Positions 1 through 7,868 of a stretch of DNA of 11,620 bases are shown here, piece after piece (the first letter of the stretch is position 1; each line of letters opens with the position of its first letter). This stretch comes from a virus (Duplodnaviria > Heunggongvirae > Uroviricota > Caudoviricetes). The notes below the pieces were generated by a model. It was not told the DNA's origin. It did not search any database and saw only the letters and a list, made by a program, of their open reading frames with translations. The stretch lies in the IMG/VR virus record IMGVR_UViG_2531839468_000021; one strand, 5' to 3'. Made by a program: the position numbers and the translations under genes.

Positions 1-456
1 TTGTCGCTGACGGGGCATTATGCCGGAGTCACTGCCGGGCAGCTGTGGACGCTCAGTCGTGCTATTTCCGGGAATGGTATTACGCAACATGCTGCAGCCG
101 GTGCGCTGGCTCAGGTGGTGGGGAGTGGTGCATTTCGTGGAAACGATATCGGTATGGTGGCGAGAGCTGCCGCACAGATGGAGCGATCGGTTGGCCAGTC
201 GGTCAGCGATACCATAAATCAGTTTAAGCGGCTGAAGGATGATCCTGTAAATGCCGCGAAGGCTCTGGACAATGAGCTGCATTTTCTTACTGCCACTCAG
301 CTTGAGCAGATACGCGTCCTTGGGGAACAGGGGCGGTCCAGTGATGCGGCTCGGATAGCCATGTCTGCACTGGCAGAGGAAACCGGTCGACGTACTGCGG
401 ATATTGATAATAACCTCAATGCGCTGGGCAGTACGCTGAAGTACCTGTCTGACTGA
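1..456 (+). CDS. H: Tail tape measure protein (lambda gpH-like), internal fragment; 5' end lies upstream of the window; ends at an in-frame TGA at 454-456 that looks like a frame break rather than a true gene end
   Basis: ORF runs from the window edge in frame 1. The translation (…GTAEQ-type Ala/Gly-rich segment then …NNLNALGSTLKYLSD) aligns by recollection with the central part of lambda gpH just upstream of its …SMWDAVLDIGRPD motif. Position immediately upstream of M is as in lambda. Confidence 0.85.
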   Translation: MSLTGHYAGVTAGQLWTLSRAISGNGITQHAAAGALAQVVGSGAFRGNDIGMVARAAAQMERSVGQSVSDTINQFKRLKDDPVNAAKALDNELHFLTATQLEQIRVLGEQGRSSDAARIAMSALAEETGRRTADIDNNLNALGSTLKYLSD

Positions 457-2102
457 TGGAGCAGTTCTGGGATGCGGCCATGAATATTGGTCGTGAAGAC
501 TCGCTGGATGAACAGATTACCACTTTACAGGAGAAAGTGTCGCGGGCGAAAAGACTCCCCTGGACGGCATCATCTTCTCAGGTTGAATACGATCAGCAGC
601 GTCTTAACGATCTTCAGGAGAAAAAACGCCAGAAGGATCTGCAGGATGCAAAAGAGCAGGCAGAGCGGAATTATCAGGAGCAACAGAAACGACGTAATGC
701 TGAAAATGCTGCACTGAACCGGATGAATGAAACGGAAGCAGCACGACATCAGCGTGAAATTGCGCGTATTAATGCCATGCAGTACGCCGATCAGGCTGTC
801 AGGGATGCGGCGATACAACGTGAAAATGAACGTTACGAGAAAGCCCTGGCATCCGGTAAGAAAAAAACACGCGAAACCCGTAATGATGAGGCCACCCGGT
901 TATTGCTGCAGTACAGTCAGCAACAGGCACAGGTGGAAGGACAGATTGCTGCTGCCAGACAGTCAGCAGGCATTGCCACGGAAAGGATGACAGAAGCGCA
1001 TAAACAGCTTCTGGCTCTGCAGCAGCGCATCAGCGACCTGGACGGGAAAAAACTGACGGCAGATGAAAAGAGTGTACTGGCCCGTAAAGATGAACTGATT
1101 CAGGCACTGACGCTGCTGGATGTAAAACAGCAGGAGCTTCAGAAACAGACGGCACTCAACGAGCTGAAGAAAAAAACAATTCAGCTGACCAGTCAACTGG
1201 CTGAAGAAGAGCGCGCTCAGCGTCAGCAACATGACCTGGATATCGCCACGGTGGGTATGGGTGATCAGCAGCGGCAGCGACATCAGGTACAACTGAGTCT
1301 TCGCCAGAAATACCAGCAACAGCTGGAGCAGTTGAGGCGGGATAGTGAGCAGAAAGGGACATATAACACGGATGACTACAGAAAGGCCGAGCAGGCGCTG
1401 ACGGAGAGCCTGAACCGACAACTGAATGAGAATCGCCGTTACTGGCAACAGCTTGAAGTTGTGCAGGGTAACTGGAAAAACGGAGTCCTGCGTGCATTTC
1501 AGGATTTTACCGTGGATGCAGATAATACGGCAGGAACAGCAGAACAGGTGTTCTCGTCAGCCTTCAGCAACATGGGAAATGGCCTGGCAACTTTTGTCAC
1601 TACCGGCAAACTCAATTTCAAATCCTTCACCTCTTCTGTGCTGTCAGATATGGCGAAAATCCTGGCGCAGGCAACCATGATGAAATCGATAAAAGGGATT
1701 GGCAGTGTACTGGGATTTGATCTCAGCAGCCTTTCCCTGAATGCCAATGGGGGGATTTATCAGTCTGCTGATTTGAGTCGTTACAGTGGCACGGTGGTTA
1801 ACCGTCCGACGTTTTTTGCTTTTGCAAAAGGTGCAGGTGTGATGAGGGAAGCTGGGCCTGAAGCCATTCTGCCACTGCGTCGTGGTGCTGACGGTAAGCT
1901 GGGGGTTGTGGCGGATATTGGTGGTTCAGGTATGGCGATGTTTGCCCCGCAGTACAACATTGAGATCAATAACGATGGCACGAACGGGCAGATAGGTCCG
2001 GCTGCCCTGAAGGTGGTTTATGACCTCGGGAAAAAAGCAGCAGCGGACTTTATGCAACAGCAGTCCCGTGATGGTGGTCTGTTCTCTGGAGGTGGACGAT
2101 GA
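456..2102 (+). CDS. H: Tail tape measure protein (lambda gpH-like), C-terminal portion (548 aa), in frame 3 relative to the upstream fragment
   Basis: Begins MEQFWDAAMNIGRED (cf. lambda gpH …SMWDAVLDIGRPD). Long Q/E/K/R-rich coiled-coil region. C-terminus …NNDGTNGQIGPAALKVVYD…DGGLFSGGGR is the conserved gpH C-terminal signature. Stop TGA at 2100-2102 overlaps the M start (ATGA). Confidence 0.9.
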   Translation: MEQFWDAAMNIGREDSLDEQITTLQEKVSRAKRLPWTASSSQVEYDQQRLNDLQEKKRQKDLQDAKEQAERNYQEQQKRRNAENAALNRMNETEAARHQREIARINAMQYADQAVRDAAIQRENERYEKALASGKKKTRETRNDEATRLLLQYSQQQAQVEGQIAAARQSAGIATERMTEAHKQLLALQQRISDLDGKKLTADEKSVLARKDELIQALTLLDVKQQELQKQTALNELKKKTIQLTSQLAEEERAQRQQHDLDIATVGMGDQQRQRHQVQLSLRQKYQQQLEQLRRDSEQKGTYNTDDYRKAEQALTESLNRQLNENRRYWQQLEVVQGNWKNGVLRAFQDFTVDADNTAGTAEQVFSSAFSNMGNGLATFVTTGKLNFKSFTSSVLSDMAKILAQATMMKSIKGIGSVLGFDLSSLSLNANGGIYQSADLSRYSGTVVNRPTFFAFAKGAGVMREAGPEAILPLRRGADGKLGVVADIGGSGMAMFAPQYNIEINNDGTNGQIGPAALKVVYDLGKKAAADFMQQQSRDGGLFSGGGR

Positions 2103-2428
2103 AAACCTTCCGCTGGAAAGTGAAACCCGGTATGGATGTGGCTTCGGCCCCTTCCGTAAGAAAGGTGCGCTTTGGTGATGGCTATTCTCAGCGTGCGCCT
2201 GCCGGGCTGAACGCTGACCTGAAAACGTACAGCGTGACGCTTTCTGTTCCCCGCGAGGAGGCCACGGCACTGGAATCGTTTCTGGCTGAGCACGGGGGCT
2301 GGAAGGCCTTTCTGTGGACGCCGCCTTATGGCTATCGGCAGATAAAGGTGACCTGCGCAAAATGGTCGTCGCGGGTCAGTATGTTGCGTGTTGAGTTTAG
2401 CGCAGAGTTTGAACAGGTGGTGAACTGA
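2099..2428 (+). CDS. M: Minor tail protein M (109 aa)
   Basis: MKTFRWKVKPGMDVAS…RVEFSAEFEQVVN is essentially the lambda gpM sequence as I recall it, with the same length. GGAGG at 2088-2092 six nt upstream of ATG 2099. ATGA overlap with the H stop and TGATG overlap with the L start indicate translational coupling. Confidence 0.95.
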   Translation: MKTFRWKVKPGMDVASAPSVRKVRFGDGYSQRAPAGLNADLKTYSVTLSVPREEATALESFLAEHGGWKAFLWTPPYGYRQIKVTCAKWSSRVSMLRVEFSAEFEQVVN

Positions 2429-3125
2429 TGCAGGATATCCGACAGGACACACTGAATGAATGCACCCGTGCGGATCAGTCGGCCAGCGTGGTGCTCTGGG
2501 AAATCGATCTGACAGAGATCGGTGGAGAACGTTATTTTTTCTGTAATGAGCAGAACGAAAAAGGTGAGCCGGTCACCTGGCAGGGGAGACAATATCAGGC
2601 GTATCCCATTCAGGGGAGTGGTTTTGAACTGAATGGCAAAGGCACCAGTACGCGCCCCACGCTGGCAGTCTCTAACCTGTATGGCATGGTCACCGGGATG
2701 ACGGAAGATCTGCAGAGTCTGGTCGGCGGAACGGTGGTCAGGCGTAAGGTTTACGCCCGTTTTCTGGATGCGGTGAACTTCGTCAACGGAAACAGCGACG
2801 CCGATCCGGAGCAGGAGGTGATCAGTCGCTGGCGCATCGAGCAGTGCAGCGAACTGAGCGCGGTGAGTGCCTCTTTGTACTGTCCACGCCGACGGAAACG
2901 GACGGCGCTGTTTTTCCGGGACGTATCATGCTGGCCAACACCTGCACCTGGACCTATCGCGGCGATGAGTGCGGTTATCACGGTCCGGCTGTCGCGGATG
3001 AATATGACCAGCCAACGTCCGATATCACGAAGGATAAATGCAGCAAATGCCTGAGCGGTTGTAAGTTCCGCAATAACGTCGGCAACTTTGGCGGCTTCCT
3101 TTCCATTAACAAACTTTCGCAGTAA
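2428..3125 (+). pseudogene. L: Tail tip protein L (lambda gpL-like), interrupted by an apparent 1-nt deletion in a T run at about 2874-2877; frame-1 ORF 2428..3054 carries the N-terminal 149 aa, then frame-3 ORF 2844..3125 carries the authentic Cys-rich C-terminus
   Basis: N-terminus MQDIRQDTLNECTRADQSASVVLWEIDL… matches lambda gpL. After …SELSAVSAS the frame-1 translation becomes Arg-rich nonsense (LYCPRRRKRTALFF…), while frame 3 continues FVLSTPTETDGAVFPGRIMLANTCTWTYRGDECGY…CSKCLSGCKFRNNVGNFGGFLSINKLSQ, the conserved gpL C-terminal Cys cluster. Adding one T to the TTT at 2874-2876 restores a continuous 232-codon ORF, the lambda gpL length. Confidence 0.85.
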
Positions 3126-4473: not shown

Positions 4474-6441
4474 ATGGGTAAAGGCAGCAGTAAGGGGCAT
4501 ACCCCGCGCGAAGCGAAGGACAACCTGAAGTCCACGCAGTTGCTGAGTGTGATCGATGCCATCAGCGAAGGGCCGGTTGAAGGTCCGGTGGAGGGATTAA
4601 AAAGCGTGCTGCTGAACAGTACGCCGGTGCTGGACAGTGAGGGGAATACCAATATCTCCGGTGTCACGGTGGTTTTCCGGGCAGGTGAGCAGGAGCAGAC
4701 ACCGCCGGAGGGATTTGAATCCTCCGGCTCCGAGACGGTGCTGGGTACGGAAGTGAAGTACGACACGCCGATTACCCGGACCATCACGTCTGCAAACATC
4801 GACCGTCTGCGCTTTACCTTCGGTGTACAGGCACTGGTGGAAACCACCTCAAAGGGTGACCGGAATCCGTCGGAAGTCCGCCTGCTGGTTCAGATACAAC
4901 GTAACGGTGGCTGGGTGACGGAAAAAGACATCACCATTAAGGGCAAAACCACCTCGCAGTATCTGGCCTCGGTGGTGGTGGATAACCTGCCGCCGCGCCC
5001 GTTCAACATCCGGATGCGCAGGATGACGCCGGACAGCACCACAGACCAGCTGCAGAACAAAACGCTCTGGTCGTCATACACTGAAATCATCGATGTGAAA
5101 CAGTGCTACCCGAACACGGCACTGGTCGGCGTGCAGGTGGACTCGGAGCAGTTCGGCAGCCAGCAGGTGAGCCGTAATTATCATCTGCGCGGGCGTATTC
5201 TGCAGGTGCCGTCGAATTATAACCCGCAGACGCGGCAATACAGCGGTATCTGGGACGGAACGTTTAAGCCGGCATACAGCAACAACCCGGCCTGGTGTCT
5301 GTGGGATATGCTGACCCACCCGCGCTACGGCATGGGGAAACGTCTTGGTGCGGCGGATGTGGATAAATGGGCGCTGTATGTCATCGGCCAGTACTGCGAC
5401 CAGTCAGTGCCGGACGGCTTTGGTGGCACGGAGCCGCGCATCACCTGTAATGCGTACCTGACCACACAGCGCAAGGCGTGGGATGTGCTCAGTGATTTCT
5501 GCTCGGCGATGCGCTGTATGCCGGTATGGAACGGGCAGACGCTGACGTTCGTGCAGGACCGACCATCAGATAAGGTATGGACCTATAACCGCAGTAATGT
5601 GGTGATGCCGGATGATGGCGCGCCGTTCCGCTACAGATTCAGCGCCCTGAAGGACCGCCATAATGCCGTTGAGGTGAACTGGATTGACCCGAACAACGGC
5701 TGGGAGACGGCGACAGAGCTTGTTGAAGATACGCGGGCCCTTGCCCGTTACGGTCGTAATGTCACGAAGATGGATGCCTTTGGCTGTACCAGCCGGGGGC
5801 AGGCACACCGCGCCGGGCTGTGGCTGATTAAAACAGAACTGCTGGAAACGCAGACCGTGGACTTCAGCGTGGGGGCCGAAGGGCTTCGCCATGTGCCGGG
5901 CGATGTCATTGAAATCTGCGATGATGACTATGCCGGTATCCGCACCGGCGGGCGCGTGCTGGCGGTAAACAGCCAGACCCGGACGCTGACGCTCGACCGT
6001 GAAATCACGCTGCCATCTTCCGGCACCACGCTGATAAGCCTGGTTGACGGGCAGGGGAGTCCGGTCAGCGTGGAGGTTCAGTCCGTCACCGACGGCGTGA
6101 AGGTGAAAGTGAGCCTGGTTCCTGACGGTGTTGCTGAATACAGCGTGTGGGGGCTGAAGCTGCCGACGCTGCGCCAGCGACTGTTCCGCTGCGTGAGTAT
6201 CCGTGAGAACGACGACGGCACGTATGCCATCACCGCCGTGCAGCATGTGCCGGAAAAAGAGGCCATCGTGGATAACGGGGCGCACTTTGACGGCGACCAG
6301 AGCGGCACGGTGAATGGTGTCACGCCGCCAGCGGTGCAGCACCTGACTGCCGAAGTCACCGCAGACAGCGGGGAGTATCAGGTACTGGCCCGCTGGGACA
6401 CGCCGAAGGTGGTGAAGGGCGTGAGTTTATGCTTCGCCTGA
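4474..6441 (+). CDS. J: Host specificity / central tail fibre protein J, N-terminal 655 aa; ends at a frame break
   Basis: [34 protein letters not shown]… and the following ~650 residues are near-identical to lambda gpJ by recollection. GGAG at 4462-4465 upstream of ATG 4474. The ORF terminates as …[11 protein letters not shown], where lambda gpJ continues. Confidence 0.9.
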
Positions 6442-7868
6442 CCGTGGCAGCGGATGACGGCAGTGAGCGGCTGGTCAGCACGGCCCGGACGACGGAAACC
6501 ACGTACCGCTTCACGCAACTGGCGCTGGGGCGGTACACGCTGACAGTCCGGGCGGTAAATGCGTGGGGACAGCAGGGCGATCCGGCGTCGGTATCGTTCC
6601 GGATTGCCGCACCGGCAGCACCGTCGAGGATTGAGCTGACGCCGGGCTATTTTCAGATAACCGCCACGCCGCATCTTGCCGTTTATGACCCGACGGTACA
6701 GTTTGAGTTCTGGTTCTCGGAAACGCGGATTACCGATATCAGGCAGGTTGAAACCACAGCCCGCTACCTTGGTACGGGACTGTACTGGATAGCCGCCAGT
6801 ATCAATATCAAACCGGGCCATGATTATTACTTTTATATCCGCAGTGTGAACACCGTTGGCAAATCGGCATTCGTGGAGGCCGTCGGTCGGGCGAGCGATG
6901 ATGCGGAAGGTTACCTGGATTTTTTCAAAGGCAAGATAACCGAATCCCATCTCGGTAAAGAGCTGCTGGAAAAAGTCGAGCTGACGGAGGATAACGCCAG
7001 CAAACTGGAGGAGTTTTCGAAAGAGTGGAAAGACGCCAGTGATAAATGGAATGCCATGTGGGGCGTCAAAATTGAGCAGACCAAAGACGGCAAACATTAT
7101 GTCGCGGGTATTGGCCTCAGCATGGAGGACACGGAGGAAGGCAAGCTGAGCCAGTTTCTGGTTGCCGCTAACCGTATCGCGTTTATTGACCCGGCAAACG
7201 GGAATGAAACGCCGATGTTTGTGGCGCAGGGCAACCAGATATTCATGAACGACGTGTTCCTGAAACGCCTGACGGCCCCCACCATTACCAGTGGTGGAAA
7301 TACACCGGTATTTTCCCTGACACCGGACGGGCGGCTGACGGCGAAAAATGCCGATATCAGCGGTAACGTGAATGCGAACTCCGGGACGCTCAACAACGTC
7401 ACGATTAACGAGAACTGTCGGGTTCTGGGAAAATTGTCCGCCAACCAGATTGAAGGCGATCTCGTTAAAACAGTGGGCAAAGCTTTCCCCCGGGACTCCC
7501 GTGCACCGGAGCGGTGGCCATCAGGAACCATTACCGTCAGGGTTTATGACGATCAGCCGTTTGACCGGCAGATTGTTATTCCGGCGGTGGCATTCAGCGG
7601 CGCTAAACATGAGAAAGAGCATACTGATATTTACTCCTCATGCCGTCTGATAGTACGGAAAAACGGTGCTGAAATTTATAACCGTACCGCGCTGGATAAT
7701 ACGCTGATTTACAGTGGTGTTATTGATATGCCTGCCGGTCACGGTCACATGACACTGGAGTTTTCGGTGTCAGCATGGCTGGTAAATAACTGGTATCCCA
7801 CAGCAAGTATCAGCGATTTGCTGGTTGTGGTGATGAAGAAAGCCACCGCAGGCATCAGTATCAGCTGA
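6429..7868 (+). CDS. J: Host specificity protein J, C-terminal 479 aa in frame 3, including a divergent C-terminal receptor-binding region
   Basis: [34 protein letters not shown]… continues the gpJ sequence directly after the break. The combined length (about 1131 codons) matches lambda gpJ. The last ~150 residues (…[24 protein letters not shown]…[10 protein letters not shown]) keep the gpJ C-terminal architecture but differ substantially from the lambda LamB-binding domain. Confidence 0.9.

Follow-up and report, generated by a model that had tools for sequence, protein, structure and literature searches.

A one-base gap in the gpJ gene of a lambdoid prophage of Escherichia coli 3030-1, most likely a sequencing or assembly error

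The prophage at the bio locus and its relatives

The stretch of DNA considered here, hereafter the window, is 11,620 nucleotides long and corresponds to positions 56-11675 of contig AFDT01000021.1 in the draft WGS assembly GCA_000225085.2 of E. coli 3030-1. The contig begins within the tape measure gene H, 55 nt ahead of the window, and continues through M, L, K, I, J, lom, stf, a short piece of fibre C terminus, a minus-strand orphan ORF of 402 aa and nleD into the chromosomal genes ybhB-bioA-bioB-bioF. The prophage is thereby placed at the att-lambda/bio locus, the site occupied by the effector prophage Sp3/CP-933K in O157:H7. The features central to this analysis are the following.

444-467, plus strand: lesion in H, consisting of five clustered private substitutions (TTA to TGA at 454-456) and one lost base
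2428-3054, plus strand: minor tail protein L, 208 aa, frameshifted at 2874-2876
4474-6441, plus strand: N-terminal fragment of J, 655 aa, comprising 651 native codons and 4 out-of-frame codons (LCFA), with TGA at 6439-6441
6420-6431, plus strand: frameshift site cgtgag^tttatg, with 1 base fewer than in every other J examined
6429-7868, plus strand: C-terminal fragment of J, 479 aa, reading from the internal Met653 codon

Searches with protein K and with the product of the 402-aa ORF retrieved six more assemblies (L248, L250-L253 and L262), referred to below as sisters, and the arrangement uvrB-bio-ybhB-nleD-402aa-stf-lom-J...H is common to 3030-1 and all six. A look-up with Lom returned only the 3030-1 contig, because a non-synonymous change at 8338 makes the Lom of the window private. 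Along the 8.8 kb of chromosome from uvrB to ybhB there are 0 differences between 3030-1 and L248 and L250-L253, the five sisters aligned there. The annotated lengths of bioA (410 vs 429 aa) and bioD (212 vs 225 aa) do differ; general sequencing error was rejected as the cause, the DNA being that of the sisters and the start-codon calls being different.

Two further genes of the right end deserve a brief description. The 402-aa ORF (10412-11620, minus strand) sits in the cargo position and has no significant match in Pfam, NCBIfam or PDB sequences. An identical protein is encoded on 19 contigs, and relatives in complete genomes, at about 96% DNA identity, are annotated as hypothetical, one of them lying beside an EspF-repeat protein. 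The stf gene (8600-9913) encodes a 437-aa side tail fibre with a collagen-like Gly-X-Y stretch and sub-threshold NCBIfam matches to Scl/Lcl collagen-like adhesins. In the 3030-1 contig only, the gene caller put minus-strand ORFs over most of stf. A shredded gene was considered and rejected as a gene-caller effect, since the frame of 8600-9913 (437 aa) is unbroken and corresponds to the genes of O157 and of the sisters. A separate case was encountered in the complete genome GCA_013887475.1 (CP057589.1, 7100-15200; L257), in which no H is called and the place of J holds only a 53-aa Ig_J piece; that tail module may be full of frame breaks, either real or produced in assembly.

A gpJ gene in two reading frames

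Direct reading of the letters gives tgaagggcgtgagtttatgcttcgcctga for window positions 6413-6441, that is ...gaagggcgtgagtttatgcttcgcctga..., and it is here that two ORFs meet. The upstream ORF, 4474-6441, ends in ...KGVSLCFA*, and the downstream ORF, 6429-7868, lies in the -1 frame relative to it. The junction as deposited is the gapped GAGTTTATG; with an extra base at 6425-6429 it becomes GAGCTTTATG or an equivalent. Codon 651 of J (AGT, Ser) is the last native one and only F652 is absent between the pieces, so that one base added between 6425 and 6429 yields a single ORF of 1131 codons reading ...KGVSFMLRLTV.... Residues 1-1130 of this repaired J align from end to end with residues 1-1131 of lambda J (PDB 8IYK chain J; E=0, 2312 bits). 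On this evidence the two ORFs, whose products carry the accessions EGW91078.1 and EGW91079.1, are read as the two halves of one lambda-type gpJ gene and not as a chance pattern. An initial annotation of this DNA had already described them as a single gpJ cut by the loss of one base, which one added base would turn into an ORF of about 1131 codons. The cut is borne out and falls in gagtttatg, some 651 codons into the gene; the length is upheld by the repair and by the alignment with lambda J, and the lambda sequence that it had given for the junction agrees with PDB 8IYK.

The repaired protein contains, in order, the Pfam domains FNIII-A_GpJ (PF24801, residues 86-207), Phage-tail_3 (PF13550, 330-498), Ig_J (PF24421, 610-714), Ig_J_second (PF24489, 716-818), Phage_Tail_Tip (PF09327, 845-972) and Ig_GpJ_C (PF12421, 1001-1131). 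The structural names used here, namely hub, FNIII-1, FNIII-2, shaft, central fibre and receptor-binding domain, derive from work on the lambda tail (PMC11101478). The N-terminal fragment contains FNIII-A_GpJ, Phage-tail_3 (hub) and profile positions 1-42 of the 104 of Ig_J (FNIII-1). The C-terminal fragment contains Ig_J positions 45-104, Ig_J_second (FNIII-2), Phage_Tail_Tip (shaft and central fibre) and Ig_GpJ_C (receptor-binding domain). As Ig_J, spanning residues 610-714, is divided at profile positions 42/45, the break lies in the middle of FNIII-1 and coincides with no domain boundary. If the lesion were real, the 655-aa product would by analogy with lambda retain the hub domains and lose most of FNIII-1 together with everything beyond it, namely FNIII-2, the helical shaft, the central straight fibre and the receptor-binding domain; adsorption would be lost, to judge from lambda structures and genetics. 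The claim of the initial annotation that a broken J removes the central fibre and adsorption therefore holds in its conditional part, since these domains would indeed be lost were the lesion present in the cell, but its premise that J is actually broken is not established.

Natural variation at the junction bears on which base is gone. The sisters L248, L250 and L262 span the junction, and all three read through it as GGG GTG AGC TTT ATG, encoding KGVSFMLRLTV. Measured against the sisters, which read AGC TTT, the lost base is the C that ends AGC, between 6425 and 6426; measured against other natural alleles, which read AGT TTC, it is the C preceding ATG. There is, in addition, a rare AGT TTT allele, which would fit the repair by an extra T. 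These three one-step repairs are equally possible and all give the same protein (VSFM). The extra T that the initial annotation had proposed at 6426-6428 does give VSFM, but it is only one of three equal repairs, and the sisters imply the C of AGC instead. The counts below come from 246 loci that were fetched with a degenerate pattern and thus form a set biased to such forms.

GGG GTG AGC TTT ATG: 127 loci
GGC GTG AGC TTT ATG: 73 loci
GGC GTG AGT TTC ATG: 31 loci
GGG GTG AGT TTT ATG: 2 loci

The window, which may be written GGC GTG AG(T) TT- ATG, is one step away from three of these four main alleles. At 6420 it has C where the sisters have G; the difference is synonymous, and the C is a known polymorphism present in the AGT-TTC and GGC-AGC-TTT alleles.

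Distribution of the gap and other private changes

A 105-nt query across the site matched 4,362 complete E. coli genomes at 8,864 places, none of which has the gapped J; the best of these matches are 105/106, identical apart from the extra base. An exact search for the gapped J gave 0 matches in metagenome, viral and GTDB-representative contigs; the intact pattern, used as a positive control, gave at least 120 matches in the metagenome contigs and at least 120 in the viral contigs. One apparent second carrier of the 479-aa protein (L003, GCA_020108905.1) was rejected, as it proved to be a gene call at a contig edge with intact junction DNA. Since the gapped form was not found as two genes elsewhere, it does not represent a natural split gene. 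The initial annotation had named conservation of both fragments as separate genes as the finding that would overturn its reading; such genes were looked for and were not found, and a conserved split gene is rejected on its absence from the complete E. coli genomes and the three contig collections.

These searches also bear on the idea that the split is functional, either because ribosomes shift by -1 near AGU UUA or because two pieces assemble non-covalently as hub and fibre. The sequence permits the second version: the C-terminal piece starts at ATG 6429, which overlaps the end of the upstream ORF, and an AAGG Shine-Dalgarno-like motif stands about 10 nt upstream, within AAGGG at 6414-6418. 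A precedent exists in phage T5, in which the hub (pb3) and the fibre (pb4) are separate proteins, each encoded by its own gene. The junction, G AGU UUA UGC, is however not a slippery heptamer of the form X XXY YYZ, and the RNA downstream (6430-6520) is less stable than its shuffles (MFE -25.9 vs a mean of -31.2, z = +1.62) and gives no sign of a stable stimulatory structure; recoding is rejected on these two grounds. Nor was an internal promoter or terminator found at the junction, within 6200-6600. The two-frame arrangement is conserved in no relative (0/8,864 places and 0 exact matches in three contig collections), the break cuts into the FNIII-1 beta-sandwich at Ig_J profile positions 42-45 of 104 instead of separating two domains, and with L and H also broken in this contig no working tail would be made in any case. 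A functional split is thus very improbable, and the sequence, as far as it can tell, excludes both recoding and a split gene that is real and inherited. Even more doubtful is the specific proposal that the gap is real and both pieces are made, the 479-aa piece by translational coupling at ATG 6429, or a low amount of full-length J by -1 slippage at U UUA. Were it true, a lambda-type phage would have a natural central tail fibre made of two pieces, and the covalent hub-fibre link and an intact FNIII-1 would be dispensable.

The sisters place the gap in a narrower frame. The J reading frame, divided into two ORFs in the window, is uninterrupted in L248, L250 and L262, and the lesion is not shared by these related strains. 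The J of L248 has 1131 aa and differs from the repaired J of the window solely by R388S. In L262 the entire portal-to-J module is intact, with H of 1021, M of 109, L of 232, K of 247, I of 200 and J of 1131 aa. A correction of the sequence to a single ORF, which the initial annotation had listed as evidence against a broken J, has in effect been obtained from these assemblies, as in three sisters the junction of this prophage, inserted at the identical chromosomal site, is uninterrupted, and J is 1131 aa long in L248 and L262.

The gap does not stand alone. Compared with its sisters, the 3030-1 contig shows seven private one-base deletions and 0 insertions over 13.9 kb, all of them in prophage DNA. 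Five of the seven fall in runs of 2-6 identical bases and three of the seven in non-coding remnant DNA; the others break H (at two sites), L and J.

Contig position 31: GG to G, in H
Window position 461: one base, within the five-substitution cluster that makes TGA at 454-456, in H
Window positions 2874-2876: T4 to T3, in L (208 vs 232 aa)
Window position 6425/6426: one base, in J
Window-equivalent position 11945: G4 to G3, in non-coding remnant DNA
Window-equivalent position 11976: C3 to C2, in non-coding remnant DNA
Window-equivalent position 12246: T6 to T5, in non-coding remnant DNA

The lesion in H splits that gene into ORFs 1-456 and 456-2102, which share a TGATG stop-start overlap. The lesion sequence was looked for in complete E. 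coli genomes and in viral and GTDB-representative contigs, and no allele with it came up; a natural in-frame allele as the source of the lesion was rejected since pattern searches disclosed none. The T3 form of L is similarly absent from 8,129 matching places in complete genomes, from two sister assemblies and from the contig collections scanned. In two unrelated assemblies (P0032 and P0033), on different alleles, L is likewise 208 aa long and ends in an identical out-of-frame tail; this recurrence marks the T run as a recurrent site of slippage or miscalling.

Substitutions complete the picture, 25 being private to the 3030-1 contig. At the start of stf, within ORF 8600-9913, 11 private substitutions with respect to all sisters are packed into the 60 nt of positions 8632-8691, and their sequence agrees in full with that of another natural stf allele (L135, L141, L153, L230). 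Such a patch points to gene conversion by a prophage resident in the same cell, or else to paralogue reads that entered the consensus. Novelty, in the sense of absence from 262 other loci, extends to the H cluster and to about nine isolated private substitutions. Altogether some 16 private point events are novel, seven of them the one-base deletions, and all are located in the 12.9-kb prophage part, with none in the 8.8-kb uvrB-bio-ybhB part. Homopolymer density is similar in the prophage and the adjacent chromosome. Six of the deletions lie in the stretch compared with L248, and the probability of all six landing in the prophage by chance is about 0.045. This restriction to the prophage is predicted neither by uniform sequencing error nor by uniform mutation.

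A probable consensus error or a possible prophage decay

As the J of the same prophage is intact in three sisters, the gap in J is most likely a sequencing or assembly error and at most a private pseudogene of an ordinary kind. The missing base is probably due to base calling or to the consensus in repeated lambdoid prophage DNA, a technical cause deduced from the pattern of changes. One route to such an error would open if two J alleles, AGC-TTT and AGT-TTC, were present in the same genome and their reads were merged into one consensus: the two differ by a displaced C and, aligned with gaps, could give exactly GAG-TTT-ATG. An alternative route would be the undercalling of a short homopolymer. 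Many of the 2011 draft E. coli genomes of the AFDT accession series were presumably pyrosequenced.

Several observations count in favour of an error. Independently assembled sisters of the clone (L248, L250 and L262) lack the gap at this locus, and the 3030-1 contig contains other one-directional single-base changes, seven deletions and 0 insertions. The indels are exclusively deletions, mostly in short runs, and affect coding and non-coding DNA alike. Indels account for about 10% of the natural E. coli mutation spectrum in mutation-accumulation studies, and seven deletions out of some 16 novel events depart from that proportion with a binomial P of about 5e-4. The draft contig ends inside the repeated tail module, and paralogous prophage sequence does intrude, as in the stf patch at 8632-8691 and in the C at 6420 that adjoins the gap. 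Other observations count against it. The 8.8 kb of adjacent chromosome carries neither indel nor substitution despite a similar homopolymer density; uniform error does not fit this restriction, and the error hypothesis has to assume in addition a link to the repeated prophage DNA. The missing base of J lies outside a homopolymer in the sister allele, and the nine or so isolated substitutions and the H cluster are not obviously explained by a mixture of paralogous reads. Prophages at the bio locus are also known to decay, an example being Sp3 (PMC2669165).

The competing explanation is that the deletion is real. In that case the prophage of 3030-1 would have recently begun to decay, with J, L and H each bearing a private frameshift, and J would be an ordinary strain-private pseudogene ending after residue 651, inside FNIII-1, with no infectious particle produced; the broken L and H would, by analogy with lambda, block tail assembly anyway. 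The lesion is, after all, present in the deposited sequence. Confinement of the private point changes to the prophage, with none in the adjacent 8.8 kb of chromosome, is expected if only the prophage escapes selection, and the novel isolated substitutions, about nine in number, are mostly transitions and resemble mutation rather than read mixing. Attaching-and-effacing E. coli commonly carry defective lambdoid prophages, one of which is Sp3 of O157 Sakai, at the same locus (PMC2669165). Against this explanation, the lesion is found in no other assembly searched, the three same-clone sisters included, and the whole morphogenesis module of the sisters is intact. Seven deletions and no insertions beside about nine novel substitutions are far off the natural ratio of indels to substitutions. 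For three essential tail genes to be knocked out independently while the flank shows zero divergence, the prophage alone would have to decay unusually fast. The prophage restriction thus costs each hypothesis an extra assumption, a consensus problem linked to repeats in one case and very fast prophage-specific decay in the other. On balance a real private frameshift is a possible explanation, though a tentative one. The J of the 3030-1 cell is most likely a normal protein of 1131 aa, as in the sisters: the initial annotation read the deposited sequence correctly, but the split is most likely not a feature of the organism.

The consequences differ accordingly. If the gap is an error, the tail module of the 3030-1 prophage is probably normal like that of its sisters, and the entries EGW91078.1 and EGW91079.1, both named 'host specificity protein J domain protein', each represent half of a single gene. 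A real gap would add one more private inactivating mutation in a prophage, a well-known phenomenon. For genome scans, frameshifts in multi-copy lambdoid tail genes of old draft assemblies should be checked against sister assemblies before decay is inferred.

Comparison with known systems places these alternatives in context. The gene order H-M-L-K-I-J-lom-stf is common to lambda and the window, and the Pfam domain order of lambda gpJ (PDB 8IYK, 8XCG-8XCK) is identical to that of the repaired J. The window differs in that its frame is interrupted at codon 652, and substitutions between lambda J and the repaired J become denser toward the fibre end, past about residue 940, in an alignment seen only to before the receptor-binding domain. 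The Sp3/CP-933K prophage of E. coli O157:H7 and O55:H7 occupies, like that of the window, the chromosomal site next to ybhB-bioA. The two have in common a right end with nleD, gap-free over 5.28 kb at 98.5% identity, and the same layout of tail fibres, in which an 89-aa C-terminal piece comes after a stf of about 437 aa. The O157 copy differs in possessing an intact J of 1137 aa, in harbouring nleB2/nleC at the place of the 402-aa orphan ORF, and in tail genes that are just about 93% identical to those of the window. On paper, a split J would resemble the tail tip of T5, with its hub and a separate FNIII/fibre protein; unlike the T5 arrangement, the break in the window falls inside a domain, is unconserved and is accompanied by broken L and H. 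Typical frameshift artefacts of draft assemblies differ from the present case in two respects, as the gap in J is not in a homopolymer with respect to the sister allele and the contig has novel substitutions too. Like such artefacts, the changes in the 3030-1 contig are single-base, deletion-only, mostly in short homopolymers and private to one assembly, and they occur in multi-copy prophage DNA near a contig end.
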